Shown piece by piece: positions 18,869 through 54,790 of a stretch of 64,000 nt of DNA (position 1 is the first letter of the stretch; each line of letters starts with the position of its first letter). Below the pieces are notes generated by a model. The model was not told the DNA's origin. It ran no database searches and saw only the letters and a list, made by a program, of their open reading frames with translations. The position numbers and the translations under genes are program-made. Source of the DNA: an uncultured Bacteroidales bacterium (GTDB lineage: Bacteria > Bacteroidota > Bacteroidia > Bacteroidales > WCHB1-69); NCBI GenBank assembly GCA_905233585.1, contig CAJOFD010000003.1:4201-68200 (forward strand), read 5' to 3'.

Positions 18869-21025
18869 GTGAAAAAAGAATTTCCTTTTTATAAACAATT
18901 AGATGCAATGGATTGCGGTCCTACTTGTCTGCGAATGATAGCCAAGCATTATGGCAAACATTATTCATTAGACACCTTACGACAAAAAAGTTTCATCGGA
19001 CGTGATGGCGTAAGTCTGTTGGGTATAGGAAAAGCAGCAGAAAGCATAGGCTTCCGTTCTTTAGGGGTAAAAATTTCTTTTTCCCAACTATGCGAAGCCC
19101 CATTGCCATGCATTGTACATTGGAAACAAAATCATTTTGTTGTAGTATATGACATTCGCTTAAACAAGCGGAAAAATGGAACGGCAGATGGTTGGGTTTA
19201 TGTGGCAGATCCCGCGACAGGAAAAATCAAATACCGTATTTCTGAATTTCTTCAAAATTGGTTGAGCATACAAAACGGCATGGAAAAAGAAGGGATTGCC
19301 ATGTTGTTGGAAGCTACCCCTGATTTTTATGCCGCTGAAGGTGAAAAAACGGACAAAACGCGTCTCCGTTTTGTATTGCAATATCTTAAACCTTACAAAA
19401 AACTGATAGTCCAACTTTTCTTGGGTATGTTGTTGGGAACTATCCTGCAACTGATTTTTCCGTTTTTAACTCAAACCATCGTTGATTATGGTATCGGTAA
19501 TGATAATTTGAGTTTCATTACTTTGATTTTAATAGCCCAATTAACACTTTATGTGGCACAAACTTCGGTAGAATTTATCCGTTCGTGGATATTGTTACAT
19601 ATCAGTACCAGAATCAATATATCCATTATTTCCGATTTTTTGTTGAAATTGATGAAATTGCCCATAGGATTTTTTGATACCAAAATGATAGGCGACCTTA
19701 TGCAACGCATAGGTGACCACAGCCGTATTGAGTCGTTTTTGACCTCCTCCACATTAAATACCTTGTTTTCTTTTGTTAATCTGATAGTTTTCAGTGTGGT
19801 TTTGGCTGCATATAATTGGAAATTGTTTTTCGTATTTTTATTTGCCAGCATCATTTATGTTTTGTGGATAAGTTTATTCTTGAAAAAACGAAAAGAATTG
19901 GACTATAAACGTTTTGCACAAGCATCTGCCGAGCAAAGCAATCTATATCAAATGATAACGGGTATGCAGGAAATTAAACTCAACAATTGTGAAAAACAAA
20001 AACGTTGGGAATGGGAAAATATACAGGCAAATTTATTCAAAGTAAGTGTAAAAGGATTGGCCTTGAGCCAATACCAGCAAACAGGTGCTTTTTTTATCAA
20101 TGAGACCAAAAATATTTTGATTTCTTTTTTATCAGCGGCAGCAGTTATCAAGGGTGATATGACTTTAGGTATGATGACTGCTGTACAATATATTATTGGA
20201 CAGTTAAATTCTCCTATAAATCAAATGATTGGATTTATTCAGTCTGCCCAAGATGCCAAAATCAGTTTGGAACGTTTGGGCGAAATTCACAACAAAGAAG
20301 ATGAGGATGAACACACAGAAGCAAGGATAATTGCCTTGCCCGAACATCATAGTATAAGTTTTCAAAACGTAAGTTTCCGTTATGATGTTTTGGGCAAAAA
20401 TGTTTTGGAGGATATTTGTTTGCAGATTCCTCAAGGCAAGATTACAGCCATTGTAGGTATGAGTGGAAGTGGTAAAACAACCTTAGTCAAACTGATGTTA
20501 GGTTTTTATCCTCCAACACAAGGAGAAATCAGGGTGGGACAAACCGCCTTGCAAAATATAGACCCGCATTGGTGGAGGCAGCGTTGCGGAGCCGTTATGC
20601 AAGATGGCTTTATATTTTCGGATTCCATTGCCAAAAATATTGCTATCGGAGAGGATATTATCGACAATCATCGATTGCTTCATGCCGCTGAAGTTGCCAA
20701 TATTCAAGAGATGGTTTCATCTCTGCCTTTAGGCTTTCAAACCAAAATCGGACAAGAAGGAAAAGGAATATCCCAAGGTCAGAAACAACGGATTTTGATA
20801 GCACGAGCCGTTTACAAAAATCCCGATTTTATCTTCTTCGATGAAGCGACAAATGCCTTGGATGCCAACAATGAACGCATTATCATGGATAATCTTCAAC
20901 AGTTTTTTAAAGGCAAAACGGTTGTCATTGTTGCTCATCGTTTAAGTACTGTTAAAAATGCGGATAATATTCTTGTTATCAATAACGGTAGAATTTCCGA
21001 ACAGGGAACCCACGAATATTTATAA
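18869..21025 (+). CDS. peptidase-C39-domain ABC transporter (bacteriocin/RiPP exporter), 3'-truncated by prophage insertion
   Basis: C39 motif QLDAMDCGPTCLRMIAKHYG; six-TM domain; Walker A GMSGSGKTT; signature ISQGQKQR; Walker B FIFFDEATNALD; H-loop VAHRLST. The ORF ends at ...EQGTHEYL* exactly at the phage junction, and the rest of the C-terminus is at 54724-54790. Confidence 0.9.
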   Translation: MKKEFPFYKQLDAMDCGPTCLRMIAKHYGKHYSLDTLRQKSFIGRDGVSLLGIGKAAESIGFRSLGVKISFSQLCEAPLPCIVHWKQNHFVVVYDIRLNKRKNGTADGWVYVADPATGKIKYRISEFLQNWLSIQNGMEKEGIAMLLEATPDFYAAEGEKTDKTRLRFVLQYLKPYKKLIVQLFLGMLLGTILQLIFPFLTQTIVDYGIGNDNLSFITLILIAQLTLYVAQTSVEFIRSWILLHISTRINISIISDFLLKLMKLPIGFFDTKMIGDLMQRIGDHSRIESFLTSSTLNTLFSFVNLIVFSVVLAAYNWKLFFVFLFASIIYVLWISLFLKKRKELDYKRFAQASAEQSNLYQMITGMQEIKLNNCEKQKRWEWENIQANLFKVSVKGLALSQYQQTGAFFINETKNILISFLSAAAVIKGDMTLGMMTAVQYIIGQLNSPINQMIGFIQSAQDAKISLERLGEIHNKEDEDEHTEARIIALPEHHSISFQNVSFRYDVLGKNVLEDICLQIPQGKITAIVGMSGSGKTTLVKLMLGFYPPTQGEIRVGQTALQNIDPHWWRQRCGAVMQDGFIFSDSIAKNIAIGEDIIDNHRLLHAAEVANIQEMVSSLPLGFQTKIGQEGKGISQGQKQRILIARAVYKNPDFIFFDEATNALDANNERIIMDNLQQFFKGKTVVIVAHRLSTVKNADNILVINNGRISEQGTHEYL

Positions 21026-21029
21026 TCCG

Positions 21030-21074
21030 TAAAACGAAATGTGCAACTTTTTAAAACGAAATGTGCAACTTTTT
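21030..21074. repeat. prophage late-end transposase-binding repeats (2 tandem copies, 22-bp period)
   Basis: taaaacgaaatgtgcaacttttt occurs twice in tandem. It is the reverse complement of the sites at 54632-54649 and 54698-54715. Confidence 0.8.
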
Positions 21075-21174
21075 ACATTTTGAAGATTTATTTGTTTTTG
21101 TCTTGAGCTAATATCTTGCAACATGCGTAAATCGACAAAATGCCAATTATCCCGCAGAAAATAGTTTCCATATT

Positions 21175-21681
21175 TTATTCTTTTAAGATGACAGGCGAAA
21201 GACTGACTTGTTGTTTATGTTGCACCGCGGAAGTATCCACAATATTGCAGATGTATTCCTCAATGGAATCGACATAACGTCCGTGGTCGTGGTTGGGAAT
21301 GGATTGGGTCCGCATCCACTGATTGGAGTTGGAGGGAGCGAAGTTCTGCATGGCGGCCACGACTTTGTCGATAGTGTCCAAATAGCAGACCGCCTGCTGT
21401 TGGAACTCGTCGGGGACATAGTCGGCGGTATCGCTAAACCACGGCGTAACAATGTGCAACCTAATGGTTAGGTCGGCACATTGTTTTCTGTTGCCGAGGG
21501 TCTGCCAAGAGTGAGGCAAAAACTCAATAAAAACCGCCGGCAGATTAAAGGGGGTTTCTTCTTCGAGAAAATCGACCTGCCGGTTCCAGAGGTCGAAATG
21601 TTGGAAGAGTTGGATTCCGTTTTCGTCTTTTATCGTTTTGAGATGATTGACGATGTCGAGATATAATTGTTTTTTCATCAT
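21175..21681 (-). CDS. phage hypothetical protein (last gene of late operon)
   Basis: 168-aa ORF, tightly packed with the upstream gene; no recognisable motif. Confidence 0.5.
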   Translation of the reverse strand: MMKKQLYLDIVNHLKTIKDENGIQLFQHFDLWNRQVDFLEEETPFNLPAVFIEFLPHSWQTLGNRKQCADLTIRLHIVTPWFSDTADYVPDEFQQQAVCYLDTIDKVVAAMQNFAPSNSNQWMRTQSIPNHDHGRYVDSIEEYICNIVDTSAVQHKQQVSLSPVILKE

Positions 21682-21682
21682 G

Positions 21683-22950: not shown

Positions 22951-23637
22951 TTATTGATTGTTAGTTACTAAGTTATATCTGTCGTTCCATGCTACGTTGT
23001 TAAATCTGTGTATTGTAAGAATATTATTGACATACCAAAGCACCTTAATAGACCACGTTTCATCGCTCGTTTGTGCCGCCTTGTTATTGCGACCTATAAA
23101 AGTGCAGTCGCCCTCGTTGTTGAAATTAGGCTGCCAGTCTGTCAGCACTTTCAGTTGCCACATGTCTGACAACGCTTCGTTTAAGCCTGTAATGGCGGAT
23201 ATTGTGTGCTGGTCTGGGTCGTTGCGGTGGGTGGCGGCATTGTGGTCGAAAAGCAATATGGTGCTGACATTTTCCACAATCGTGTAAGAGGCATTGTTGC
23301 CACCCATTGCCACGAGTTCCACCTGCGTAAGTTCCCTTATTCGGATATGCTGAGTATTGTCGGGAAAACGATTGTTATCTACAAAAAATGTTGCAGTTCT
23401 TGTAAGTGTCCCGGGTGCTAATTTATGTTCTGCAAATGTAACATGCAACTTGCTATTGTCGTCTTCATCTATGTAGCAGTTGTTGCCCTGTCCGTTACGG
23501 AATGAGGCGGAAAAAGATGTGTATTTATCCGTTTGGTAACACAGTTCTATGTTGAGCGTGTTGATGTCTATCGGCTCGCCGTTGGCATCAAGGAACTGCT
23601 CGATGAGTTCAAAGTCGGATTTAAAATATATTTTCAT
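22951..23637 (-). CDS. phage hypothetical protein (tail-fibre region)
   Basis: 228-aa ORF with a 4-nt overlap with the upstream gene. Confidence 0.45.
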   Translation of the reverse strand: MKIYFKSDFELIEQFLDANGEPIDINTLNIELCYQTDKYTSFSASFRNGQGNNCYIDEDDNSKLHVTFAEHKLAPGTLTRTATFFVDNNRFPDNTQHIRIRELTQVELVAMGGNNASYTIVENVSTILLFDHNAATHRNDPDQHTISAITGLNEALSDMWQLKVLTDWQPNFNNEGDCTFIGRNNKAAQTSDETWSIKVLWYVNNILTIHRFNNVAWNDRYNLVTNNQ

Positions 23638-24125
23638 TTTTTAAATAATTGGTTTAATTTTCTTTCTATTTCATTGATGATAAGTTCGTTTAAATCATCT
23701 GATTCTCCCATAAACTGTCGTTTGGGCATAATAAAACCTTTACCTCTACCTGCCTTAAGTCCTTCATTATGGACACGCCCGTAAGGTTCTTTGGAACGAA
23801 AAACAGAGGGTGAAGTCCATACCACAACTTGTCCTTTGGTAACAGATTTTACTTCTATCGACCTGCCAAGGTCGCCGGTCTCTGTTAATATGGGATGTTC
23901 TGTCCGTGCCGGATTGTGTTTTGCGGCATATTTGTATGCTTTGCTGCCGGCAGTCCTGCGCTGCACCTCTTTCCATTTTGTTCTTCCCCATGCCTCATTC
24001 TGGAAATTCTGTTTGAAATACGAAACCGCTGTATTGCCGGCGATTTTGGGTGCGTGTTTATCAAAAAGGTCTTTAAAATCCCTTTCAAGCCTTTTTAGTT
24101 CCTTGTTAAAACCTTCAGGTGTCAT
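23634..24125 (-). CDS. virion morphogenesis protein (Mu gpG-like)
   Basis: I moved the start to MTPEGFNKELK (ATG 24125), abutting the upstream stop at 24127. The C-terminal GRGKGFIMPKRQFMG resembles the gpG/Phage_tail_S family as I recall it. Confidence 0.45.
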   Translation of the reverse strand: MTPEGFNKELKRLERDFKDLFDKHAPKIAGNTAVSYFKQNFQNEAWGRTKWKEVQRRTAGSKAYKYAAKHNPARTEHPILTETGDLGRSIEVKSVTKGQVVVWTSPSVFRSKEPYGRVHNEGLKAGRGKGFIMPKRQFMGESDDLNELIINEIERKLNQLFKK

Positions 24126-24126
24126 A

Positions 24127-24543
24127 TTAATATTGATTATTACGTTTATTGTTACCGCCAAAAGAAACATAGGAAGAAGTTCCGGTGGTACCGGTGAGAC
24201 GTGTAAGACCATCGATAGAAGCTCTTTCGGCCTGCACTTCTTTCAGAAATGCAATTGCATCTTTGTAAGCGTCTCTTCTGCTGTCTGGCATGTTGACTGG
24301 GTTTGAAATCTGATAGCAGTTATAAATTGCGATGTCCCTTACAAGTTTTATGACCATCGTATTTCTGTCTGTTCCTGTTTTAGTCCACTCCGCTCGTATA
24401 TCATATCTTGCAGTCAAATAGGATTCGACTTCGGCCTGAGCCTCGGCAATGGCTTGTAGGGCGTTGTCTTCGTTGCGGGTGATAACTGCCAAAATTTCGC
24501 GGTGTATGCCTTTGGAAAGGTCTTGTAAAGTAAGGTATGCCAT
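24127..24543 (-). CDS. DUF1320 / Mu gp36-like head-tail connector protein
   Basis: MAYLTLQDLSKGIHREILAVITRNEDNALQAIAEAQAEVESYLTARYDI is the characteristic DUF1320 N-terminus. Confidence 0.65.
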   Translation of the reverse strand: MAYLTLQDLSKGIHREILAVITRNEDNALQAIAEAQAEVESYLTARYDIRAEWTKTGTDRNTMVIKLVRDIAIYNCYQISNPVNMPDSRRDAYKDAIAFLKEVQAERASIDGLTRLTGTTGTSSYVSFGGNNKRNNQY

Positions 24544-26132: not shown

Positions 26133-27032
26133 TTAATTATCAATTATCACTTCCAAATTAGTTAATGTCAAATACCCTGACTGCGGGGTGTAATAGGTGT
26201 TTCCCGTAATATCTTCTGCTGGATGTCCCGCATGGGTGGCCAGCAGACTGTTCACCTGTGCTATCTCTATCCCTTCTACTGTCTGAAGGTGGTCTATCAT
26301 GGTCATGCCTACAAATTGCCCGTTGAATTCAATGCTGTTTAAATACTTTTTAATCGCTGTTTCAATGGCATTTTCCACATCAGCCCGTGTCCCGAATATA
26401 AGAGGGTTGTAAACAACCTTCACCGACACATCTAAACTGTCGGCAGGCTCATTGATAACAGTAATCGGAATGCCTGCCGGTTTTATCCGGTTAATATACG
26501 TTTCTGCCATGCTTGCTTCCGCAGAACTTAACGGAGTGGGTATCCCATTGCCGTCATCTTTGGCTATCTTTATCAATACGCTGTGACCATTGTCTGTTGC
26601 ACTTGCATATTTGATTATTTGCAAATCTTCTATTTCCTGTGGTGTTAAACCGGTATCGGCATATTCCGTGCCTTCGGCAAAATCCGCATCGCTATGGCTA
26701 TAGTCATTTTCTATATCCTGACCGTAACGAAAGGCTTTCATCTTCTTGGCATACCATCCCGCATACCCATAGCGTTCTTTGTCCACCACGTGCTGTACAT
26801 CGCTTTTGAACCAATCCATCATGTTCTCCAACGCTGCCATACAGGTGGCCACCACAAAAATAAGACAACTTTCCACACTTACCTTGCTGAAGTTGTATTC
26901 ATAGTATGCCAATTGCGTTGCTTCATCACCATCGGCGTCATATCCTGTCAAACCGTATGCTGACCGCAATGTTTCATTCCTGACGAATGCCACTTTTATC
27001 TCTTCTGCTGTTTCTTTTATTGTTCTTGCCAT
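26133..27032 (-). CDS. baseplate J-like protein (Mu gp47 position)
   Basis: 299 aa. Size and synteny (V-like, W-like, J-like, I-like order). Confidence 0.5.
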   Translation of the reverse strand: MARTIKETAEEIKVAFVRNETLRSAYGLTGYDADGDEATQLAYYEYNFSKVSVESCLIFVVATCMAALENMMDWFKSDVQHVVDKERYGYAGWYAKKMKAFRYGQDIENDYSHSDADFAEGTEYADTGLTPQEIEDLQIIKYASATDNGHSVLIKIAKDDGNGIPTPLSSAEASMAETYINRIKPAGIPITVINEPADSLDVSVKVVYNPLIFGTRADVENAIETAIKKYLNSIEFNGQFVGMTMIDHLQTVEGIEIAQVNSLLATHAGHPAEDITGNTYYTPQSGYLTLTNLEVIIDN

Positions 27033-27034
27033 AT

Positions 27035-27310
27035 CTATTTCAATTCTATTTCTATATCGTCATCAACTACTTTTATTCTTTCTACTTCAACCTTGCAATA
27101 CTTCAATTGATTCTTTACATTTCCCGCCCAAAAACTATCAGGACGGCCGGCGATCATGTTTTTTGCATTCCCGCCAAGGGTCGGCTCGTGTTTGTATTCT
27201 CCTGTAAAGGCTCGTGTCAGATGTTCCGCCACCTGTGCTTTCACTTCGCCTATAACAAGGCTGCCTCCTTTTATCTGCAAATCTCCGTCTTCTACTATTA
27301 TTCCTCGCAT
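27035..27310 (-). CDS. small baseplate protein (Mu gp46 / gp25-W position)
   Basis: 91 aa, between the spike-like and J-like genes. Confidence 0.4.
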   Translation of the reverse strand: MRGIIVEDGDLQIKGGSLVIGEVKAQVAEHLTRAFTGEYKHEPTLGGNAKNMIAGRPDSFWAGNVKNQLKYCKVEVERIKVVDDDIEIELK

Positions 27311-27314
27311 TTTT

Positions 27315-27821
27315 CTAATGTTTTATTTTGTCATCTTGATAATCATTGATATTAAATTTCTCTGCTTGATTAGTTGTTACTGCAGCAGTACCGGATTGTG
27401 CTACTGCAGAGCCTTCCGTGCTGACTGCATGTGTGTGATTATTGAAGGTATCTACTAAAGCATTTAATTGCTTTGTCAGGTCTTTTATGTTTATCAGTCC
27501 GCCATTGTCGCCGCCGTTGATGGTGATTTTGTCGCATTGTATGTCCACACTGTCTATTTCGCTGTACAGGCTGACATAGTAATTAAAATCGTCTATTCTT
27601 GCCACCAATACAAAACTGTCTGCTTTGGGTTTTATCACCATGCCGACGCTCTCGTCCGACAGCTCGTTCAAGCGTACTCCTGCTATTTTCAAATTATCAC
27701 CTTGACGCACCACGGTACAGGTGGCTCCGTCCACCTTTTGCACTTGGGCGACAAAGCAGTTTTGAGGTATTTTCCCCATAATGGCTTTTAGCAAATTCGC
27801 ACATTCTCTTTCTTTACTCAT
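27315..27821 (-). CDS. baseplate spike / assembly protein V-like (Mu gp45 position)
   Basis: Start reassigned to MSKERECANLL (ATG 27821), giving an ATGA overlap with the upstream stop. OB-fold-like N-terminal half; C-terminal HTH-free spike-like NHTHAVSTEGSAV segment. Confidence 0.5.
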   Translation of the reverse strand: MSKERECANLLKAIMGKIPQNCFVAQVQKVDGATCTVVRQGDNLKIAGVRLNELSDESVGMVIKPKADSFVLVARIDDFNYYVSLYSEIDSVDIQCDKITINGGDNGGLINIKDLTKQLNALVDTFNNHTHAVSTEGSAVAQSGTAAVTTNQAEKFNINDYQDDKIKH

Positions 27822-28831
27822 TTTATTGCGTATCCTAAGGTTATCACTTGTCTGTATCCTGATGTCCCGAACTTGTATTCCACTGCATCCACCCAAAATT
27901 TTCGTCCGTCTCTTTCTTTGCGTAGCTTGTCTTGCAGTCTGACAATATCGCCTTTTCGCACGTAAGGAACTCCGAATCCGGTGATGTTTCCTGTCATTTT
28001 GTCACAAGCATATTCATTGTATATTTTTTCCGCTGCAGCTTTCAGTTCCGTCTGGGTTTTCATGCCGGAAAAGTAAAAATGTCGCTGCTCATAGTCGCTT
28101 TTGACCGATTTGCCGCTCACATCTATTGCCTCTTGGGGAACTATACATTCCAACTTCGTGTTGTCTGTTTGTATGCTGGTGGCTTTTACGGCTATTTTCA
28201 CATCATCTTTCGTGGTGTATTTCAAACTGTCGCTTATCTGATTCCTTTCGGGGTCAAAAGTCAATATTCTTCCATTGGCCAATGCCTTGTGGGTGGTGAT
28301 GCCGTAAAACACGCCCTCTCTGAAAAAGCCTTTCAGCCACGGATAGGTGGATATCAATTTGTCCAATGCTTGGGCAAGTGTCTGCTGGTCTATTTTTACT
28401 TGACCGAAATTTACTTCGTCCGGCAGTTCGATCCAGAGCTCCGGAACATATTTCTTCATCCATTTTTTGAAGTCAAAATGCTCAATAATTTCCGCATCCA
28501 CATTGATGGACTTAAACAACCTCATCTCGTTTTCGCAATAGATGACTATTTCCTTGATGGTGTTTTCCACGCTTTTGATATAGCCTTTAAACACCATTTC
28601 CATGTTTCCCATTTCCGCATAGCCGAGTTTTATGATTATGGCATCATCCACATTTACAAAGTCTGTCAAGGCTTTTCCTTGCCATTGCATCTTGCGTGGA
28701 ACCTTCAATACCGCCGTATCGGTAAGGTTTTTGCATGATGTTTTTATTAAAATATCATTGCAATAGTCAAACGTAATAGTTTTTTTACTATCTTTGCACT
28801 TGATTTCTATGTCACACTTTAAACTTAACAT
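27818..28831 (-). CDS. baseplate hub protein (Mu gpP / late-control-D-like position)
   Basis: 337 aa, downstream of the tape measure and the gp43-position gene. Confidence 0.45.
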   Translation of the reverse strand: MLSLKCDIEIKCKDSKKTITFDYCNDILIKTSCKNLTDTAVLKVPRKMQWQGKALTDFVNVDDAIIIKLGYAEMGNMEMVFKGYIKSVENTIKEIVIYCENEMRLFKSINVDAEIIEHFDFKKWMKKYVPELWIELPDEVNFGQVKIDQQTLAQALDKLISTYPWLKGFFREGVFYGITTHKALANGRILTFDPERNQISDSLKYTTKDDVKIAVKATSIQTDNTKLECIVPQEAIDVSGKSVKSDYEQRHFYFSGMKTQTELKAAAEKIYNEYACDKMTGNITGFGVPYVRKGDIVRLQDKLRKERDGRKFWVDAVEYKFGTSGYRQVITLGYAIK

Positions 28832-29791: not shown

Positions 29792-31393
29792 TTATTCTGC
29801 TGCGTAATTTACATCATTGACTATCATTTGCAAGGCCATAGAGAGCTTCTCCATAAAGTCTCCGGCCGTCTCCGGACTGTCTTGGCTGCTTTGGAACATA
29901 TTCGTGTTTTCTCCTATCAGGCTGCCTATCGTGATATTGAAATTCTTGATATTCTTACCCCCGGCACTGATGGTTTCACTTGAGGTGCTCAAGTCGTTGT
30001 TGATGGTTTTTGTGTTGTCGGTGATTCCCAAACCCAAACTTGCCTGTAAATCCTTGCTCACACCTTTCAATGTCTTGCTCTTGTCAAAACTCAAGCTCAC
30101 TCCCTTCCATGCGTTGGCGGCGGCTTGGGCGTGTTTGGCCACTTCTTTTGCTCCTCCGCTTATCGCTTTTTTCCTCCGCTCTATGTCATCGCTTATTTCT
30201 TTCAGTGCCCGGTTGTTTTCTATTTCATCACCTTTGCCTAACAGCAGTTTTAACTTATACCATGCCTCTCTGAGTTTGTCTATGCCTATCATTATGCCGT
30301 TAATCATGGTGGTATATTTCAGTTTTACAACCTCTACAAACATCGCAAAGGTCTCTTTGGCAAAGGTTACTACGGCATCCCACAAGGTACCCCAACCTTT
30401 TATCTTCACGCACAAAAACACCACAATGGCTATCAAGGCAACTATACCCGCTATGACCAAACCAATGGGATTAAGAGACATGACTACATTTAATATTCCT
30501 TGTACTGTTATCCAACCTTTAATGGCCAATATTACAGCACCTATTCCAATGGATAAGATTTCAAACAATCCTTTATGGTCTTCAATAAAACCAACAACGG
30601 CCGTGCTTATCTCCAACAAACGTTCTACGATTGGAGCAAGGGAGGATTTTAGGTCTGTAACTAATTTGCCAATACGTTCTTTCAAATCCCCAATATTATT
30701 ACTTACTTGTTTCATGGCTCCTTCTGGTGTATTGGCCAGTGCTTCGTTCACTCCGCCAACGGCACTGCTCACCACTTCGGCCAAGGTGGCAGCACGTTGT
30801 TCTTCTGTGCCGAATTTCAGTATTTTCTCTTGGTTTTCGTCAAACTTGTAGCCGTAACGACTCAAGGCTCCCACCTGTCCGTCCATCACTTTCCCCATCA
30901 TGGTGGCTATATTCACGGCACTTTCTTGACTGGCGTTCATACCGTATTGTTGGGCTACCATGTCGTTCATCACCGGCATCAACTTCTTCAAAGTGTCGGC
31001 TTTGGTCAGATAAGTTCCCAATTCTTGAGCTCCTGCCAATTGAACCTCGTCGCCGATAACCCCCAATTTTTGTTGTGCCGATGCCAAGTCAAGTATGCTT
31101 TGCATTTCCTCCCGGCTCGCTCCCATGGTGTTCCGCATCACCTGTGCCAATTTTGTCTCCGCCTCCACCTGGGCATAACTCAAAGCTTCAAATCCCGACA
31201 ACTTACTTGTCAAGCCACTTATGGCATGGCTGATGGTTTCAAAGGCAAAGCCTACGTCACGTATTTTTGTTATCGTATTGGTGAAGTTAGTTACATGGCT
31301 TGTTGCTGTTTGTACACCCTGCGAAATGGCAGCAATGTTTTCTTGAGCGTTGCCTGTAATATTTATTGCAAATTGTACTGTATTATTTGACAT
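29792..31393 (-). CDS. tail tape measure protein
   Basis: 533 aa, Ala/Gly/Ile-rich, with central hydrophobic helices (ILSIGIGAVILAIKGWITVQGIL..., GLVIAGIVALIAIVVFLCV). Located after the sheath/tube/chaperone genes. Confidence 0.8.
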   Translation of the reverse strand: MSNNTVQFAINITGNAQENIAAISQGVQTATSHVTNFTNTITKIRDVGFAFETISHAISGLTSKLSGFEALSYAQVEAETKLAQVMRNTMGASREEMQSILDLASAQQKLGVIGDEVQLAGAQELGTYLTKADTLKKLMPVMNDMVAQQYGMNASQESAVNIATMMGKVMDGQVGALSRYGYKFDENQEKILKFGTEEQRAATLAEVVSSAVGGVNEALANTPEGAMKQVSNNIGDLKERIGKLVTDLKSSLAPIVERLLEISTAVVGFIEDHKGLFEILSIGIGAVILAIKGWITVQGILNVVMSLNPIGLVIAGIVALIAIVVFLCVKIKGWGTLWDAVVTFAKETFAMFVEVVKLKYTTMINGIMIGIDKLREAWYKLKLLLGKGDEIENNRALKEISDDIERRKKAISGGAKEVAKHAQAAANAWKGVSLSFDKSKTLKGVSKDLQASLGLGITDNTKTINNDLSTSSETISAGGKNIKNFNITIGSLIGENTNMFQSSQDSPETAGDFMEKLSMALQMIVNDVNYAAE

Positions 31394-32108: not shown

Positions 32109-32543
32109 TTACTTCCATTCTATGTGTGACAATATCATTTCTATTTCTGCCGTGTTGCTGGTGTCGCCTTCGCTTATTTCCACGCCGTCTGTCTTGAACT
32201 GACAGTTACGCAAGCGGTGCGTTACTATCTTTTGACCGTTCACAGGCAAAAATTGAACGATAATATCAAAGGGTGCTATATCTTGCAGTCTTCTGGTGGT
32301 GCTGCTGTCTCTCAATGCTTCTATTTCACTGCGAAGCAGGGTCATCGATGCACTGCATTCTATTTTCCCGTAGCCTCTCGCAACAGGTCGCTGGCCAAGT
32401 CCGTAGATGTTTTCCATCGTCTGGCTGTCACTATAGCTTATTTTGGTGATGCCCACTACCGGAACTCCGCCTATGTTTACTTGTAAATTAGCCCAGCTGT
32501 GTGCCACTCCGTTTATTTCAGGTATTGTTCTTAATCCGTTCAT
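32109..32543 (-). CDS. tail tube protein
   Basis: 144 aa, immediately downstream of the sheath-size gene and upstream of the chaperone. Confidence 0.6.
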   Translation of the reverse strand: MNGLRTIPEINGVAHSWANLQVNIGGVPVVGITKISYSDSQTMENIYGLGQRPVARGYGKIECSASMTLLRSEIEALRDSSTTRRLQDIAPFDIIVQFLPVNGQKIVTHRLRNCQFKTDGVEISEGDTSNTAEIEMILSHIEWK

Positions 32544-41141: not shown

Positions 41142-41662
41142 AGCTCACCTCCTTCCACCATCTCTTTGCAGCCTTCTAAGCGGAACCTTCGATAGGCTGA
41201 CTCTTCTGCTCTTGCTAACCATTGCTTTTTCACATGTTCGGGAATAACAACATACTCCCCATGTTGCCTTACGCTGTAGCTACCAGTCTTGCGGATGCTC
41301 GGCAATACCTCGCCTGTGACCCACTTCCGGAATACCTTCGCCTCCTGCTTGTTGCTACGAATAATGAGTGAATACATACCACTCTCTGATACAAGAAGCG
41401 TCTCTTGTTGTCTGCCAAGAGAATCGGTGAGGTAAACTTTTCTTACCTCATCTTCGTCCAGTGGTTGGATAGCTACTTTGTGATTGGAATGTTTCAATAT
41501 GTCGCAAAGGTCTTTTACGACAAACCAAGGCTCTCCGCCTATGATTTCCACCCTTACCGGCTGGTTACCCGGATTGAAGGTGAAAGTTTGCAGTGCGGTC
41601 TCTCCCGCCACCCCCTGTACGGACGCGCCATGGCACGTCCCTTTGTTAATTTCTTCGTTCAT
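41138..41662 (-). CDS. BRO-N domain protein (antirepressor-like)
   Basis: FNPGNQPVRVEIIGGEPWFVVKDLCDIL...SESGMYSLIIRSNKQEAKVFRKWVTGEVLPSIRKTG; classic Bro-N motif set. Confidence 0.8.
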   Translation of the reverse strand: MNEEINKGTCHGASVQGVAGETALQTFTFNPGNQPVRVEIIGGEPWFVVKDLCDILKHSNHKVAIQPLDEDEVRKVYLTDSLGRQQETLLVSESGMYSLIIRSNKQEAKVFRKWVTGEVLPSIRKTGSYSVRQHGEYVVIPEHVKKQWLARAEESAYRRFRLEGCKEMVEGGEL

Positions 41663-43328: not shown

Positions 43329-44420
43329 TTATTCGGGTTCTGTAATTGAATATAAATCTAATGTTCCATTTTCAAATTCCCCTAATTTTACCTGAAACTC
43401 GTATTGGTTTATTTTTAACTTGTAAACTTTCATGTGTTTAAATAGTTTTTTACGCTGGTAAAATATGCTTCTATGATTATTGTGGGACAAATCAATATCC
43501 TCATCTCCGATGAATTCTAATTTTTCAACATATTGGTCAAAATGTTGGGCAATTTCCTGTTTGTAGAAATATGATTTGTCAGATTTGGCACCTTTGCTTA
43601 TTTCTTTTACTGTAATGCCGTCATAAAGAATTTTTCCAATCCCGGTTTCAAACACCTTTTTGTCATCTTTGTGGTTTGCTCTAAATATTTCACGTTCGGT
43701 ACGGATAACGTAAGTGCCCGTTTCTTTCGGCAATCTTCTGAAATATGAACACTTGTCCGTAAAAATTTCACCAGTTTTTGCGGGGTTGCCTTCCAGACCT
43801 TGGGAGTAGATGTCTTTGGGTCGGTAGGAGGAAGGCTTATCGTCTGTCTCTTCCCAGTCGCATTTACAGTTCCACAGGTTGCCCGGCTGGTTGTGTTGCC
43901 AGAACTCATCTGTCTTGGGCAATACCAAACCGTAAAATGCCACGTGTTCTTCCCTGCGGGTGGCAGAGCGTGAGGGCAACCATTTCAGGTTGGGATAGAG
44001 CATATTACTTGTCGAGTCGGAGGTAAAATCCATCCATTGCTTGGCGGTTCTTGCTCTGGCCACAGCCGTATTGTATTCCGCCGCTTGATAACGGTTGAAA
44101 GTGTTGATAATAATAGTGGCGGCATTGTCAAATTTATCTGGCTTTTCGGCATAATATTGTTTCAATTGCTCGGTAAGCATATAGGCCTTGTAGGCGGCAA
44201 AACGGCTTACATTGGCATTGAATTGTGCCTGTATATCGGCATATTTTTCGTTTTTAGAAAAAACTCCGCTCACAGCATTGCGAAAGTTTTCTGCGTATGC
44301 CTTATACGCATCAGGGTGAATATTTCCTGCTTGTCCTGCTTTTACATCAGAGAGGATTTTTTTGTACAGTTCCTTTTTGGAAAGGTTGTACAAAATAGGA
44401 AAACTGCTCACTGCTTCCAC
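43329..44420 (-). CDS. Mu F-like / SPP1 gp7-family head morphogenesis protein
   Basis: Directly follows the portal-size gene. HNQPGNLWNCKCDWEE is a Cys-pair motif typical of this family. Confidence 0.65.
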   Translation of the reverse strand: MEAVSSFPILYNLSKKELYKKILSDVKAGQAGNIHPDAYKAYAENFRNAVSGVFSKNEKYADIQAQFNANVSRFAAYKAYMLTEQLKQYYAEKPDKFDNAATIIINTFNRYQAAEYNTAVARARTAKQWMDFTSDSTSNMLYPNLKWLPSRSATRREEHVAFYGLVLPKTDEFWQHNQPGNLWNCKCDWEETDDKPSSYRPKDIYSQGLEGNPAKTGEIFTDKCSYFRRLPKETGTYVIRTEREIFRANHKDDKKVFETGIGKILYDGITVKEISKGAKSDKSYFYKQEIAQHFDQYVEKLEFIGDEDIDLSHNNHRSIFYQRKKLFKHMKVYKLKINQYEFQVKLGEFENGTLDLYSITEPE

Positions 44421-44500: not shown

Positions 44501-45811
44501 TTATAAAAAAAAACTTTTCAAACGGTTCAACAGGTTGTTAGCTTTGCTTGGCTTGCTATGTTGCTCCTCATTGAAAGGGTTTTGCAAAGCGTTTTCAAAG
44601 GGATTAAAAGAGGCTTGCATTCTCATTTCCTCTTTCAATTCTTCGTAATTCTCCGGCTTGGGAATGTCAAATTCTTCATATATATAATCGTCATCAACGG
44701 GAACTCTGTCTGCAATGGAGTTGATGATATTCCATTTTGTCTGCAGTTCGTTCCAGTCTTTGTCGGCAGAGCGGTACCAGATGTCTCCGTCTGTAACATT
44801 GAAGCCGAAGCGTTTCAAAATGGCTCTGAACTTAGTATTTAGAATAGACAATATAAATTGTTTGTCATTCGCGGTTTTGGCATCTTCCACTTCCTTATGA
44901 ACTTCGCCAAGCGAACGTGCACCTGTTTCGCCTTGTTCTGTTGTGAGTGTGTTGCCGAGTATTGTTTTAGAAATGGAAGCGTCGCAAGCGGCTATAAGGC
45001 TGTTGTAAACATCGTTAGAGCCTGTCGAGCCACCTGTTTGGTGTATTTTAAGTTCTGCAGAGCGAGGGTGAAGCGAATACCCTGCTGCTCCCCATTCCTG
45101 TAAGCCTTGTTCGAGTTTCGCACGTGTTGCTTCATCATAATCATCGTAAACCATCTCACGGAATGGCATGCCGAACATCTCTGCAAATTGTGACCAGTCT
45201 CCGAAGCCGCCACGCTTGTATATTACATATTGTGCTGCTTTTGCAAACAACCCCTTATCGGTTTTGTCGCCCGCCCACAGCATATAGTTGGCCAACGGAG
45301 GCTCCATATACATCCAGTCTTTGGTCGCCATGGATTGTTGCCGGCTGATGCACTCAAATCCCTCTTCCGGATGCACGTGCTTCCTCGGTATCAGGTCAAA
45401 GTCTATCTTGTAGCTTTCTTCTGTTTCATCGTACCAAATGTTGTTCACCTGTATCAGCGTATATCCCCATGCAATGGAGTTGTGCAGTTCTTTGATAAGG
45501 ATACGCATATCTGGTGAGTTTAGCAACTTGCAAATTTGCTCATCTTCGACGCCGTCTTTAACGAATATCAATTCTTGGTTGAGTACGGCATCCTGTCGCT
45601 TGCCCCATGTGGCTTCTATTTGCCCGTCCAACAGTATGTCTTCATACAAGTCATACAAAGCGGTTCTGCTGGGATTGACAAGGTTTTCAAAGGCTTTGAC
45701 AGCCGTTTTCCAATTCTGAATATCCTGCGTATTGTGCGAAGCATTCTGAATATTGATATTGTTGACAATTACATTGTCGGGTTTCTTCTTTTTTTCGTAT
45801 TTTACTGCCAT
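44501..45811 (-). CDS. portal protein (Mu gp29 / DUF935-like)
   Basis: 436 aa; size and position upstream of the MuF-like gene. Confidence 0.6.
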   Translation of the reverse strand: MAVKYEKKKKPDNVIVNNINIQNASHNTQDIQNWKTAVKAFENLVNPSRTALYDLYEDILLDGQIEATWGKRQDAVLNQELIFVKDGVEDEQICKLLNSPDMRILIKELHNSIAWGYTLIQVNNIWYDETEESYKIDFDLIPRKHVHPEEGFECISRQQSMATKDWMYMEPPLANYMLWAGDKTDKGLFAKAAQYVIYKRGGFGDWSQFAEMFGMPFREMVYDDYDEATRAKLEQGLQEWGAAGYSLHPRSAELKIHQTGGSTGSNDVYNSLIAACDASISKTILGNTLTTEQGETGARSLGEVHKEVEDAKTANDKQFILSILNTKFRAILKRFGFNVTDGDIWYRSADKDWNELQTKWNIINSIADRVPVDDDYIYEEFDIPKPENYEELKEEMRMQASFNPFENALQNPFNEEQHSKPSKANNLLNRLKSFFL

Positions 45812-47874: not shown

Positions 47875-48167
47875 TACATTGAAAGCAATTCACAATTAAA
47901 TTGTTTTGCAAAAAAATATTCTATATTGGCACCGTTGCTTTGTTCCCAGCCAGGAAGCATACAAATAGCATCGCAAAACCGCAAGGCGACAATGTCTATT
48001 ATCATGCACAATCCCCATGGCAGCCAAGCAGGACACAAGCGAGTCGGGTTCACCGTCTTGTAACCCATCTCACGTAGTTTTGTCTCACACAATCCAAACT
48101 CCAAACGGACACTAAGGATGTTCCGCCCGCTTATCGCCCCGCTAATATATACGCTTTTTGCTTTCAT
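47874..48167 (-). CDS. DUF4406-like (nucleoside 2-deoxyribosyltransferase-like fold) protein
   Basis: VYISGAISGRN...TVNPTRL...DAICMLPGWEQSNGANIEYFFAKQ matches the DUF4406 pattern as I recall it. Confidence 0.65.
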   Translation of the reverse strand: MKAKSVYISGAISGRNILSVRLEFGLCETKLREMGYKTVNPTRLCPAWLPWGLCMIIDIVALRFCDAICMLPGWEQSNGANIEYFFAKQFNCELLSM

Positions 48168-48835
48168 TACACCTCCGATAAACTCAATGCCAAATCTTCC
48201 CAGCCCTTTTCATCGCTTGTCTTTGTAGAACAGCGAACAAACAACCTGCTGCGGGTAGGGCGGTATGCTTCTCTGATAATTCTTATTCCTTCCATAAATT
48301 CTTCATTCCCGCTCTTTTCCGCTATCTGTCCCAATTGGATTACACGGCTGGCTTTCAGGTTGCCTTTTTGGTCTCTTGCCAACAATCGCAAAACAAGACC
48401 TATCAGTTCCTCGCTTTGTTCGTCTTTTGCAAGACTTTGCAAGTAATCTTTTACCTTTGCAATGCCCTCTTCAACTTGACAAAGATAATTGTCGTTCATG
48501 TTGTAGCCAATGCGAATGCGTTGTGTGCCTTCGCTGTTGGTAAACATAAAGCTGTCTTGTTCTTTCTTGCCTTCGCTTTCGTTTACTTCTTTCCGCAACT
48601 CCATCAGCGTGGAAAAAGTGTCGATTATCTTCTTCTTACATTCTGCTAACTTAGCATTACAAGACTGCAGTTCCTGCACAGCCTCTTCCATCACATCGTC
48701 GGTCATCGCTTGCAATTGCTTTCTTTGTTCTCTTCTTGATAGCATTCGAGCTTGTCGTTCCTGTTCGGCTTTAAATGCTTCAAATTTTGCTTTTTCTTCC
48801 TCGGTCATTGCGACCATTGTTTTTTCTTCGCTCAT
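48167..48835 (-). CDS. phage early coiled-coil protein
   Basis: 222-aa ORF at the position of Mu-like conserved early genes. Confidence 0.45.
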   Translation of the reverse strand: MSEEKTMVAMTEEEKAKFEAFKAEQERQARMLSRREQRKQLQAMTDDVMEEAVQELQSCNAKLAECKKKIIDTFSTLMELRKEVNESEGKKEQDSFMFTNSEGTQRIRIGYNMNDNYLCQVEEGIAKVKDYLQSLAKDEQSEELIGLVLRLLARDQKGNLKASRVIQLGQIAEKSGNEEFMEGIRIIREAYRPTRSRLFVRCSTKTSDEKGWEDLALSLSEV

Positions 48836-48862: not shown

Positions 48863-49336
48863 TTAGTTTAAATAAATTCCTTGTTTAATTGATTTTTTTA
48901 CGCACGCCACTCTTTGTTTTTTACAGAACTCAGCGTATATTCTGCTAAGTTCTGCCGGCGACAGCTTATTGAAGTCGTCTTTTCCAGCAGCACGGCAGGC
49001 AATGGCTTTTACATATTCCATAGTCGGCTGCATACCTTGTTGTTCCAAATGGGCGAAAATGGCTTTTATCACCCCTTTACGCTTGCGGTCTATTGTCATC
49101 ACATCGGCACGACCCGCTGCCGTTCTTCTTTCGCGATTCGGATTCGCTGTTTCGCTCAAGAAATCAATAAGAGATTGACATTCGTGCTTGTACATCTCTT
49201 TTGAACGGGTTGTTCTTTGTGCGGTATAGTTCCACACCATGGTCTGCAATGTCTCTTTGTCGATACCCAAGCGACTGCACAGGTAGTGCAACTTTCTGTT
49301 CTGCTCCGGTGTCCGTAAATCGTTATTTTTCATCAT
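48863..49336 (-). CDS. phage early protein, possibly GemA/gp16-like
   Basis: 157 aa. Weak recollection of DUF1018-like features, plus position after the B-like region. Confidence 0.35.
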   Translation of the reverse strand: MMKNNDLRTPEQNRKLHYLCSRLGIDKETLQTMVWNYTAQRTTRSKEMYKHECQSLIDFLSETANPNRERRTAAGRADVMTIDRKRKGVIKAIFAHLEQQGMQPTMEYVKAIACRAAGKDDFNKLSPAELSRIYAEFCKKQRVACVKKSIKQGIYLN

Positions 49337-49946
49337 TTAATCCCCAATACTTTAACGCCAAATCTTCATTTATATCAATATATTTTCCTCCGCCATATCG
49401 ACCCACAGGGAAGCCCCTAAAACCCTCAACACGAATATAAACATTGCTATCTCTCCATATTTTCTGAGCAACGCTTCCTTCAGGTTTGTTGCCATCTATG
49501 TGACTTATATAGATAAATAGTTTGTTGGGGAAACTGTCCTTCAATTGCTTATACTCGCTCCATTTTAACCCTAAAAACTGCACGCTATCGATTATAACCA
49601 CATCTGGACTACTTCGACGAATTAATCGCTCTTCCATTTCTTTCACATCCTCTTTGTCTAAGAGTATAAATCGTCTGCGAACATCTTCCATGTCTGTGCG
49701 TTGAATCGCAGCACGAATACTAAGAGATAAACCCTCTTCGACACTGTTATATGCCACTTTTGCGAATTTGCACATATACTTAGCCATCTGCATTGCAAGA
49801 GTTGTTTTACCATTCTTGGGAGCACCGTAAATTAGCCAGCTCCCTCCCAATTGTGGACAACCAATAGCGTCCAACCACTGCCCATCAAACTGCAGGGTCT
49901 TAAATTTCGCATTAATAACATTTTGAACGCTGTATGCCCTTTTCAT
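49323..49946 (-). CDS. RecA-superfamily P-loop ATPase (KaiC/DnaB-C-like)
   Basis: Walker A YGAPKNGKTT; Walker B VVIIDSVQFL. Confidence 0.6.
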   Translation of the reverse strand: MKRAYSVQNVINAKFKTLQFDGQWLDAIGCPQLGGSWLIYGAPKNGKTTLAMQMAKYMCKFAKVAYNSVEEGLSLSIRAAIQRTDMEDVRRRFILLDKEDVKEMEERLIRRSSPDVVIIDSVQFLGLKWSEYKQLKDSFPNKLFIYISHIDGNKPEGSVAQKIWRDSNVYIRVEGFRGFPVGRYGGGKYIDINEDLALKYWGLNDEK

Positions 49947-50824
49947 TACGCTCTATTTTTGCAGATTTCTTTATATATTCTCCTCAAGCTCGGCATTCCG
50001 TCATCGCCCATTGTCTTACGCAACAACCTGTTAATATCATCTCCGCCATTCGCTTTGATTATCATAGAAGCCGTTGTCTTCATCATTTCCTTGCCGGATT
50101 CGCCGTCTGCGACAACATTGCCATATCTTTTCCCAAATCGTGAGAATATTTCAGTATATCCAACCTTCTTATTATTAATGCTTCTTTGTATCTTTGCCTT
50201 TAATCCGTCTGCCCCCATCATGTACCAGCCACATGCACCCTCTGTTGCGTTCCAGAGTGCCTTTATTTCAAGCCACGCCTCGTAGTGTAAATCGCCAGCC
50301 TCGTCTAATATTATTAAAGGTTTTTCTAATTGCTTTAAATAATATATTGTGTTCGCCTCAACATCGTTTAGTCTTCCAGAACTGTCAAGTCCGAACGCTT
50401 TTGCAATAGTTCTTATTAGCTGTGTTTTCCCTTTTGCAAGACTACAATCTATATAGGCAACATTTTTGTGTGTTTTTGCATAGATTTTAGCTGTCCATGT
50501 TTTACCTATGTCGCTCAAATCGCACAACAAACTACTCAGAGCCTCGTTTTGACATATCTCTAACTGTGTAGTGATAAAATCAAAAATTGGCGTTCTTGCT
50601 GTCTGCCACACTGGAGCATTTCCGATATTAACTTCCAACTGTCTTGCAATCGCAATCCAATTAGTGTCCGATAACACCTGTTCTACGTCGCCATTCTTTA
50701 CCCTGCTGTATTGTGAGCCGCTAATACCTAACCATTTGGCGAACTTGCTGTCGCTGCCACCGAACATGGGGCGATGCTCTTGCATCGCATCAACTATTTT
50801 GTGTTTTAGTTCTTTTGTAATCAT
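49946..50824 (-). CDS. MuB-like AAA+ transposition ATPase with N-terminal HTH
   Basis: HTH FAKWLGISGSQYSRVKNG; Walker A-like LSDIGKTWT; Walker B LIILDEAGD. Immediately downstream of the transposase. Confidence 0.75.
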   Translation of the reverse strand: MITKELKHKIVDAMQEHRPMFGGSDSKFAKWLGISGSQYSRVKNGDVEQVLSDTNWIAIARQLEVNIGNAPVWQTARTPIFDFITTQLEICQNEALSSLLCDLSDIGKTWTAKIYAKTHKNVAYIDCSLAKGKTQLIRTIAKAFGLDSSGRLNDVEANTIYYLKQLEKPLIILDEAGDLHYEAWLEIKALWNATEGACGWYMMGADGLKAKIQRSINNKKVGYTEIFSRFGKRYGNVVADGESGKEMMKTTASMIIKANGGDDINRLLRKTMGDDGMPSLRRIYKEICKNRA

Positions 50825-53149: not shown

Positions 53150-53503
53150 ATGAAAGATAGATTAAAGAAAATTATTGATTATTATAATATTACACCCAAT
53201 AATTTTTCGCAAAAAATTGGTGTGTCGGAGGGTACTATACGCAAAGTTCTATCGCATAACACCACTTTGAGGAGTGATACCTTGGATAAAATATCGCAAA
53301 ATTTTACGGATATTAGTATTGACTGGCTGGTCTCGGGGCGTGGCGAAATGTTGCGAAAACCCGACAATACAACTAATGAAAATACACTTACAGCCACCAC
53401 AAATGACAACTTGCAGTCTCTTATAGATATGCTTAATCGTACACTTATAGAAAAAGATAAACAAATAGATAGATTATTAACTATAATAGAAAAATTTAAA
53501 TAA
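53150..53503 (+). CDS. phage repressor-like XRE-family HTH protein
   Basis: ITPNNFSQKIGVSEGTIRKVLSHNTTLRSDTLDKISQNF...IDWLVSGRG. Transcribed toward the phage end, like Mu c. Confidence 0.7.
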   Translation: MKDRLKKIIDYYNITPNNFSQKIGVSEGTIRKVLSHNTTLRSDTLDKISQNFTDISIDWLVSGRGEMLRKPDNTTNENTLTATTNDNLQSLIDMLNRTLIEKDKQIDRLLTIIEKFK

Positions 53504-53504
53504 T

Positions 53505-54167
53505 ATGTTAACAGCAAATCCAACAAAAAAAGGTATAGGAATTGAAATTTGGGGAGACTATAATGATTTAGAATGCCTTTACGATGTTATGAGCGTACTA
53601 TCTTTATCTAAATCAGCAACAAACGAAGCAGATTTTGAGCGTAATGAAAGACTGCTCACGATTGTTCCTTATGAAATCAGACATGCATTTCAGGGAGAAC
53701 GGTTAAAGAATAAACATATAGGAAATGGGCATAGTTGCGAAACTTTATATTATGGATTCCGCACTGACTGGATTACTATTCTTTTTACATATTCTGCTTT
53801 ACGATTTAATGCTGCACATACACCAACAGATGCTTTTATTCAAGGATGGTTATATCTGCTTAAACATCAAATAAATAATGCTTTATATATGTATGATGAG
53901 TTGGGGGCAATTGCTATAGAACCTCTGATTGAGCAAGGTCTCAATGTCTCTACAAAATATGTTTACCTACTTCATCAAAACTATGTAGCAAAATACCTCT
54001 CAATGAAATCGGGGAAAAAGCGATTTCGTTCCATACCATTATTATTAACAGACAAAGTACTTGAAAAAGAAATAATCAATAGTATTGATGAATGTATGAT
54101 ATTAGAAAACTGTCCAATTAGTGAAATTGAAAGCACAAGCGAAAATCGTTATCCAGAAAGATGGTAA
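53505..54167 (+). CDS. unknown protein co-transcribed with the repressor (lysogeny cargo)
   Basis: 220-aa ORF starting 2 nt after the repressor stop. AT-rich, with no motif I recognise. Confidence 0.6.
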   Translation: MLTANPTKKGIGIEIWGDYNDLECLYDVMSVLSLSKSATNEADFERNERLLTIVPYEIRHAFQGERLKNKHIGNGHSCETLYYGFRTDWITILFTYSALRFNAAHTPTDAFIQGWLYLLKHQINNALYMYDELGAIAIEPLIEQGLNVSTKYVYLLHQNYVAKYLSMKSGKKRFRSIPLLLTDKVLEKEIINSIDECMILENCPISEIESTSENRYPERW

Positions 54168-54597
54168 TTTTTTTATTAAGTTTTAGATGTTTTTTTACAT
54201 AAAGTATTGAAATATAACGATATAATTATATATTAATATGTCAATTATATGTCAATTATATTCAATTAAAGGGTATCAAACTCGCAAAAAAAGCCGTTTT
54301 TTTGTGCGTTTTTTGCAACTATACCCATATGAACTACACACAAATGACGTAGTTTTTGCCGTAGTTTTGCCGTAACTCGTATTTTTTTTTAATTTTTTTT
54401 AATTTTTCATTTTCGCAGTAATGCGTCTTTATGTGCGTCTGTCTTTCGTTTTTAATGCTTGTTTTTTCTATTTTTTTACGTAAACAAAAACGCACAAAAC
54501 CCCGCAAATACAGTCGTTTGTACGCAATTAAACAAAAATATAAGATTGTTCTAATCCAATTAAAAAAGTCTTTAAAAAAAGCGTTTAAAATCTGCCA

Positions 54598-54630
54598 AAA
54601 ATTAAAGCAAAATTAAAGCAAAATTAAAGA
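54598..54630. repeat. 11-bp tandem repeat x3 (aaaattaaagc) abutting the inner transposase-binding site
   Basis: Read directly; two perfect copies plus one with a single change. Confidence 0.85.
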
Positions 54631-54631
54631 A

Positions 54632-54715
54632 GTTGTACATTTCGTTTTAAATCGGCAAAATGTAACTAATTGTTTTTTAGGCAAAAAATATTTACTACTT
54701 GTACATTTCGTTTTA
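54632..54715. repeat. prophage c-end transposase-binding repeats (2 copies, 66-bp spacing)
   Basis: gttgtacatttcgtttta (54632-54649) and cttgtacatttcgtttta (54698-54715) are reverse complements of the 21030-21074 repeats. Confidence 0.8.
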
Positions 54716-54723
54716 TACCCCAT

Positions 54724-54790
54724 ATATTTGACCAACTTTAAAGGAGAATATTTTAATTTGGTAAAAAATCAATTGGAATTGGGAATTTAA
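54724..54790 (+). pseudogene. displaced 3' end of the C39 ABC exporter gene
   Basis: Joining ...GTHEY at 21019 to 54728 onward reads in frame as GTHEYLTNFKGEYFNLVKNQLELGI*. This is the canonical C-terminus of this exporter family. Confidence 0.8.

Follow-up and report, generated by a model that had tools for sequence, protein, structure and literature searches.

What has split a peptide-exporter gene near its 3′ end in an uncultured Bacteroidales bacterium, and how did it get there? The question arises in a stretch of 64,000 nucleotides (the window) from contig CAJOFD010000003.1 of assembly GCA_905233585.1, in which about 33.7 kb of DNA separate the body of the gene from its last codons. A preliminary description of the window had taken this insert for a Mu-like prophage in the 3′ end of an exporter of ribosomally synthesized and post-translationally modified peptides (RiPPs), and the empty site in other strains as well as the phage genes of the insert bear this out. 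We put the probability that a Mu-type temperate phage, integrating by transposition, has split the exporter 3′ end in this RiPP locus of a gut Bacteroidales at about 0.88. The insertion is well documented but ordinary and overturns nothing in current understanding; its worth lies in a clean natural comparison of the site before and after insertion of a Bacteroidales transposable phage whose ends are exact to the base.

Two copies of ATATTT, at 21016–21021 and 54724–54729, flank the insert, which has a G+C content of 40.5% versus 35.7% and 32.4% in its flanks. In the lysogen the exporter open reading frame (ORF) starts with GTG, encodes 718 aa and ends in GTHEYL; its last Leu codon and stop span the junction, the TAA at 21023–25 being insert sequence. 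Joining 21021 to 54730 gives an uninterrupted 737-aa ORF ending in GTHEYLTNFKGEYFNLVKNQLELGI and a stop, the insertion falling in the final 60 nt of the gene. The repeat on both sides, the immediate stop supplied by the first phage bases and the ORF restored by removal of the insert had all been read correctly in the preliminary description; the loss to the exporter, put there at 23 residues, amounts to 19 (TNFKGEYFNLVKNQLELGI), which are encoded with their stop at 54731–54790.

Used as a query, the reconstructed protein retrieved P0001, a 724-aa protein with 100% identity to it from Met14 through to the C-terminal residue; the P0001 gene lies on four metagenome contigs that are independent of one another (L001–L004). 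The exact predicted 80-nt empty-site junction is present in 4/4 of these prophage-free contigs, which match the reconstruction exactly; the two window-flank alignments overlap on them by exactly 6 nt, and GAATATTTGACC occurs once in the empty site. Over 5.9 kb of left flank (15098–21021), lysogen and empty-site contigs differ by one single-nucleotide polymorphism (SNP), and the exporter DNA is identical; the insertion is therefore recent in evolutionary terms. Phage–host junctions recur at 100% identity in three further assemblies (L005–L007), which rules out an assembly chimera. Exporter homologues of ~79% identity end in GTHEELTARKGEYYELVKNQLELGN, indicating a conserved full-length C-terminus, and among the 120 exporter homologues listed none is short enough for truncation at the lysogen stop (the shortest has 723 aa).

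Two of the contigs carrying the phage end stop shortly after it. One (L006, window 54724–54810; k = 87) stops 86 nt past the phage end, which equals k − 1, and the other (L005, window 54724–54778) stops 54 nt past it, which is k − 1 if k = 55 is assumed. Such overhangs fit a branch of the de Bruijn graph in which one flank is shared by two upstream paths, and we take them as a sign that alleles with and without the prophage occur together in these two samples.

By profile searches the insert is a complete-looking transposable phage (Table 1). Its early genes and most of its late genes lie on the minus strand, while two genes, those of the repressor candidate and of the DUF6904 protein, are transcribed outward to the phage end, with the transposase operon behind them. 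The gene of a MuB-like ATPase adjoins that of the transposase, the presence of sheath and tube genes indicates a contractile tail, and none of the phage ORFs scanned showed an integrase or recombinase domain. The Gp36 and Phage_tail_S assignments are Pfam families precomputed for genes called on the identical contig L007.

The transposase itself has no sequence match in Pfam, NCBIfam or PDB, and a 12-sequence profile likewise gave nothing usable; five of the 12 relatives match the Pfam integrase-core domain rve. Its homologues number 630; of the 120 listed, none carries a Pfam domain or an informative name, which flags a large transposase family with no Pfam-A or NCBIfam model match in the sources searched. 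An AlphaFold2 model built from 37 homologues is of medium confidence, with a predicted local distance difference test score (pLDDT) of 71.8 and a predicted template modelling score (pTM) of 0.43. Its best structural matches in PDB are the TnsB strand-transfer complex 7svw (E = 1.8e-12) and the Mu transpososome 4fcy (5.5e-11), and the MuA core 1bco is matched as well (E values ranging from 1.8e-12 to 7e-07). The predicted structure alone places the transposase in the MuA/TnsB (RNase H-like DDE) fold class, and this placement, together with the gene content, supports "Mu-like" as a statement of mechanism class and gene repertoire. Invariant columns and model strands suggest D306/D307, E371/E373 and E402 as candidate catalytic residues.

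The ends of the phage have an architecture to match. Just inside each junction lie two copies of an 18-nt motif, TAAAACGAAATGTRCAAC, those at one end inverted relative to those at the other (four matches were seen in 0/100 shuffles). At the tail-gene end the putative sites, TAAAACGAAATGTGCAAC, occupy 21030–21047 and 21052–21069 with a spacing of 22 nt; at the repressor end, TAAAACGAAATGTACAAG at 54698–54715 and TAAAACGAAATGTACAAC at 54632–54649 are followed by TTTAATT-type repeats. These 18-nt sites are predicted to bind the transposase.

Close relatives of the transposase were not found in IMG/VR; the end motif served to reach relatives. With the terminal bases left free, a search of IMG/VR viral contigs yielded 12 insertions, all in unrelated flanking DNA, whose repressor-side ends take the form 5′-TAYGGGCAY-[G/T]AAAACGAAATGTACAA; one of the contigs begins exactly at TATGGGC. 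A looser search of the same kind turned up ends of the other type, 5′-TATAATC(C/G)NN-AAAACGAAATGT, at least 15 in number and with a second site ~22 nt on; in both searches the first T is invariant and the preceding base varies. A scan of one genome per species, whose pattern itself required the leading TA, added more than 60 TATAATC-type and more than 30 TAYGGG-type ends, all with different flanks, in hosts including Prevotella, Phocaeicola, Parabacteroides, Alistipes, Muribaculaceae, Capnocytophaga and Riemerella. The terminus TATAATC(C/G)NN-AAAACGAAATGT is found in more than 65 other insertions and the TAYGGG terminus in more than 35. Counted over Bacteroidales and Flavobacteriales genomes and over viral contigs, insertions with the end motif beside unrelated flanks number more than 100. 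Same-contig end pairs of relatives were not obtained from the genome scan, which returned 8-kb blocks, and homologues of the terminal 168-aa gene share no contigs with the listed transposase homologues. The termini here read TA...TA (TATAATCC...CCCCATA), as they do in the ~100 relatives and the Hankyphage record, in keeping with the earlier remark that they do not look like TG...CA ends. In such phages the ends can be placed by the pattern 5′-TA, 9 nt, then the AAAACGAAATGT site.

From these parts a course of integration may be proposed. The 662-aa transposase, of MuA/TnsB-type predicted fold, would bind the two 18-nt sites at each end and pair the ends, and the MuB-like ATPase encoded next to it would deliver target DNA. 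The two 3′-TA ends would then attack the target 4 bp apart by strand-transfer chemistry, and gap repair would duplicate TATT. Mobility is clear in relatives of this phage: one whose transposase is 94% identical and whose 26-nt end, TATGGGGTATAAAACGAAATGTACAA, is the same lies beside unrelated host DNA (L271), a 60%-identity relative occupies two different sites (L267, L268), and a 69%-identity relative adjoins the gene for a transcription-repair coupling factor (L264, L265).

The present copy would, we infer, also be active. The alternative that survives best is that it is a fixed, defective remnant, unable to move or to form particles, as the single insertion site of the exact sequence might suggest; Hankyphage, too, is described in PMC12135933 as making defective particles in the laboratory. 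All expected modules are nevertheless present as long ORFs, the paired sites are intact at both ends, and the flanks are almost identical to those of the empty-site strains and hence mark a recent insertion, all of which makes a remnant rather unlikely.

The target duplication is very probably of 4 bp, TATT, and the element most likely reads 5′-TATAATCCG...TACCCCATA-3′. Because the terminal T is invariant and the adjoining flank base variable, the terminal T and A belong to the phage; host A21016 and T54729 coincide with the terminal A and T of the phage, giving rise to an apparent 6-bp repeat. A profile of 103 distinct flanks reads C/T, A, T, G/A from −4 to −1, which is self-complementary for a 4-bp stagger, and when the symmetry of the profile was bootstrapped 2000 times, n = 4 was best in 1871 replicates, n = 5 in 114 and n = 6 in 14. 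A complete Hankyphage-like prophage in Segatella hominis (L260, NZ_CP137560.1) has the junctions GGTCATCTT to TATAATCCGC and GTGCCCTTTA to TCTTCTTC, a 4-bp repeat with TCTT before TATAATCC and again after CCCTTTA. Matrishin et al. (PMC10367356) likewise describe "short 4 bp bounding repeats" in related Porphyromonas gingivalis transposable phages. The Hankyphage record BK010646 begins with TAAGGGG and its end reads TAAATCCGG in reverse complement, with TA at both termini.

Several observations weigh against a transposing phage with a 4-bp duplication. The transposase is without a sequence-level match to Pfam, NCBIfam or PDB, and its structural placement comes from a medium-confidence model (pLDDT 71.8, pTM 0.43). 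This exact phage is seen at one site only, mobility being seen in its relatives. The terminal position is not perfectly clean, the end of one relative reading TAAAGGGG in L268 versus TAAGGGG in L267. Both flanks are readable in only two insertions, this phage and L260, and both allow 5 bp if one terminal base is taken as host; 5-bp direct repeats were stated for Hankyphage by Benler et al. 2018 (PMC6199706). The flanks of a Hankyphage relative in Phocaeicola massiliensis (L270, OY726001.1 1204–43327) do not match at all, with gtagg before TAAATCC at one end and catgt after CCCTTA at the other, probably reflecting recombination or rearrangement between transposed copies or an assembly split into many "plasmids"; owing to this mismatch, L270 was left out of the duplication analysis.

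The preliminary description had the duplication as 5 or 6 bp, with ends readable as 21022 and 54723. The same prophage with a 6-bp (ATATTT) or 5-bp (TATTT or ATATT) duplication and an end at 21022, 54723 or both would agree with the identity of ATATTT on the two sides, its single occurrence in the empty site, the 5-bp duplications that Mu makes and the repeat length stated for Hankyphage, and L260 can be read as a 5-bp repeat, ATCTT, as well. It would, however, need an A first or a T last, or both, in every target, and flank bases vary: the A at flank position −5 would have to be invariant and occurs in only 23–39% of flanks, which by this count all but excludes the longer repeats. The bootstraps and the P. 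gingivalis phages also speak for 4 bp, and we regard a 5- or 6-bp duplication as improbable; comparison with ~100 insertions of relatives reassigns the ends to 21021 and 54724. Published duplication lengths for Bacteroidales transposable phages conflict (5 bp for Hankyphage, PMC6199706; 4 bp in P. gingivalis, PMC10367356), and the coincidence of host and phage terminal bases seen here suggests how a 4-bp repeat gets over-read as 5 or 6 bp. A site-specific temperate phage acting through an integrase at a short ATATTT core in the exporter gene can be dismissed, even though every copy of the exact phage found sits at one site and a short repeat flanks it: the scanned ORFs showed no integrase or recombinase domain, the phage encodes a transposase of MuA/TnsB fold together with a MuB-like ATPase, other host sites carry near-identical ends, and inverted subterminal repeated sites are a transposon feature.

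The transposing phage resembles Mu of Escherichia coli in its transposition, with a MuA-class transposase followed by a MuB-like ATPase and inverted multiple sites near both ends, in an end repressor gene reading outwards (as Mu c), and in its contractile tail. Shared with Mu are also GemA, DUF3164, and Mu-type portal, F, protease, Gp36 and tail-completion proteins. It differs in its termini (5′-TA...TA-3′ here, TG...CA in Mu), in a duplication that is most likely 4 bp, whereas Mu makes 5-bp target duplications, and in a transposase unrecognised by the Pfam rve, Mu-transpos_C and DDE models. Further differences are terminase genes on the opposite strand, a position of the adaptor and tail-completion genes at the far end after the tail genes, and a Bacteroidales host. 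TnsB of Tn7 and of type V-K CRISPR-associated transposons is, alongside MuA, the top structural match, at fold level only (11–14% identity), and also has an AAA+ target-selecting ATPase as partner, but the element here is a phage and has no TnsA, TnsC, TnsD or Cas genes.

Also among its closest known counterparts is Hankyphage p00 (BK010646), with identities of 55% for TerL, 46% for TerS, 38% for the portal, 33% for the protease, 32% for F and 26% for MuB. Hankyphage also shares the Bacteroidales host, TA at both termini, AAACGA-type end sites and inverted packaging genes, and non-site-specific transposition is common to Hankyphage and the proposed Alisviridae of P. gingivalis (PMC6199706, PMC10367356). 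In contrast, Hankyphage has a long tape-measure (siphovirus) tail where sheath and tube genes (myovirus type) are found here, and it measures 42.8 kb versus 33.7 kb. Transposase and tail genes had no tblastn match to BK010646 (E 1e-3), and no reverse transcriptase or diversity-generating cassette was noticed in this phage. The most fitting place for the element is among the Bacteroidota transposable phages grouped around Hankyphage, as a new member with a contractile tail; it is a mosaic that carries the Hankyphage packaging and head module.

In curated phage and plasmid collections the closest transposases, 38% identical, are those of MT836083.1 and of Phocaeicola massiliensis OY726006.1, whose phage has a different end repeat (GTAACCCCTAA) and is hence uninformative on the ends. 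In OY726006.1 (L261, ~19900–20300), GTAACCCCTAA repeats near the repressor end replace the AAAACGAAATGT site, which indicates that end-site specificity has switched within the transposase family. We tentatively suggest, as a possibility somewhat short of even odds, that the transposition module represents a distinct branch of the MuA/TnsB superfamily with this transposase family, 3′-TA termini, a 4-bp stagger and the AAAACGAAATGT site. Such a branch would be common to otherwise different Bacteroidales and Flavobacteriales phages with contractile and with long non-contractile tails; the duplication lengths published for it conflict (4 versus 5 bp).

Table 1. Exporter fragments, predicted prophage features and proposed duplication copies in the window (E, expectation value)
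Feature	Positions	Strand	Basis or remarks
Truncated peptidase-containing ABC exporter (PCAT)	18869..21025	+	ORF list, translation, domains on identical P0001
Left target-duplication copy TATT (inferred)	21017..21020	.	Inside ATATTT 21016–21021
Transposable (Mu-like) prophage	21021..54724	-	33,704 bp, 5′-TATAATCC...CCCCATA-3′
Tail-gene end of phage	21021..21069	+	9-nt terminus TATAATCCG, then two sites
Tail-completion protein	23634–24212	-	Phage_tail_S on identical L007 genes
Gp36 adaptor	24127–24543	-	Phage_Mu_Gp36 on identical L007 genes
Baseplate	26133–28831	-	
Tape measure	29792–31393	-	
Tail tube	32109–32543	-	
Tail sheath	32555–33910	-	
Lysin-like protein	34724–35134	-	
Major capsid protein	35151–36269	-	
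Head protease	36715–37884	-	
Small-terminase-like DNA-binding protein	37991–38437	+	phrog_4151, small-terminase families
Large terminase	38428–39972	+	phrog_38, E 5.9e-62
Two Rha/Ant anti-repressor-like genes	42052–43203 and 41138–41662	-	PHROGs matches
Mu F-like head protein	43329–44420	-	PF04233 E 5.6e-05, weak, below cutoff
Mu-type portal	44501–45811	-	PF06074 Portal_Mu, E 7.4e-69
DUF3164	48167–48835	-	E 7.1e-11; early region typical of Mu-like phages
GemA	48863–49336	-	E 6.2e-06; early region typical of Mu-like phages
RadA/Sak4-like ATPase	49323–49946	-	Early region typical of Mu-like phages
MuB-like AAA+ transposition ATPase	49946–50824	-	PF13401 AAA_22 E 9.4e-11; phrog_296 "DNA transposition protein" E 1.5e-27
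Transposase, 662 aa	50849–52837	-	phrog_310 transposase, E 6e-18
Helix-turn-helix repressor candidate	53150–53503	+	Profile search
DUF6904 protein	53505–54167	+	Profile search
Repressor end of phage	54632..54724	-	Minus strand reads TATGGGGTA, then two sites
Right target-duplication copy TATT (inferred)	54725..54728	.	Same basis as left copy
Orphaned exporter 3′ end	54730..54790	+	G 54730 is third base of split Leu codon

A plus-strand block at 37991–40878, comprising the TerS-like and TerL genes and two small ORFs, runs opposite to all other structural genes; the packaging block is likewise inverted in Hankyphage p00 and in L260. The latter prophage (NZ_CP137560.1 82000–128000), which carries a reverse transcriptase, is flanked by TCTT; its neighbours on the Segatella hominis replicon, which measures 317 kb, are a short DUF4138 (TraN-like) fragment on one side and, on the other, the traM gene of a conjugative element. 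No terminator-like site was found between the repressor operon (53150–54167) and the phage end, and it may be speculated that transcription reads through from this operon into downstream host genes; a sigma-70 promoter scan is uninformative for Bacteroidales.

On the host side, the exporter, as judged from the identical P0001, has the Pfam domains C39 (PF03412), ABC_membrane (PF00664) and ABC_tran (PF00005), aligns with PCAT1 (4RY2) over residues 2–717 of 724 (E = 1.8e-102), also matches ComA (8HF4), and matches NCBIfam bacteriocin/NHLP export ABC families. Upstream of it are genes for an S41 peptidase, a radical-SAM/SPASM peptide maturase (6.7e-69 to the Clo7bot family, below the equivalog cutoff) and an HlyD-type adaptor, and "RiPP exporter" is a fair description. 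Like exporters of the PCAT1/ComA type, it combines C39 peptidase, transmembrane and ATPase domains in a nearly full-length alignment; unlike them, the lysogen exporter is without the last 19 residues of the ATPase domain. In solved homologues the lost residues align within the ATPase domains (e.g., GTHDELMERKGIYHSLVNMQM in ABCB4). Loss of this conserved segment makes a loss of exporter function likely, and export is probably impaired in the lysogen. The insertion also puts 33.7 kb between the exporter and the downstream genes.

Further changes surround the insertion in this lineage. An IS30-family transposase gene (13654–14376, E = 1.4e-68) lies in a segment at 13642–14897 that replaces ~4.5 kb (L001:142–4654) kept in all empty-site contigs reaching that far. 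The replaced DNA holds an Lcl_C-like gene together with two genes for S41 peptidases, and beside the IS30 boundary SNPs are concentrated at 14902–15097. Directly after the exporter, an 8-nt tandem duplication, AAATAGAT, at 54907–54914, absent from 4/4 empty-site contigs, frameshifts a 92-aa candidate precursor gene (window 54899–55186; L001:10949–11227). In the empty-site contigs this gene reads MEKIDKYKNAKLENMDAIIGG followed by REV, a double-glycine leader of the kind cleaved by C39 domains; in the window it reads MEKIDK and a stop, and the ORF restarts only at Met15 (54950). Prophage, IS30-linked deletion and frameshifted candidate precursor together suggest that the peptide locus of the lysogen lineage is probably already non-functional or decaying, an apparent case of decay of a peptide-export locus in one strain lineage. 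Upstream in the empty-site locus, a stretch of 178 nt (L001:1783–1960) is 94% identical to window 60142–60319, part of the downstream phosphopantetheinyl-transferase gene region, of which the L001 stretch is a partial duplicate.

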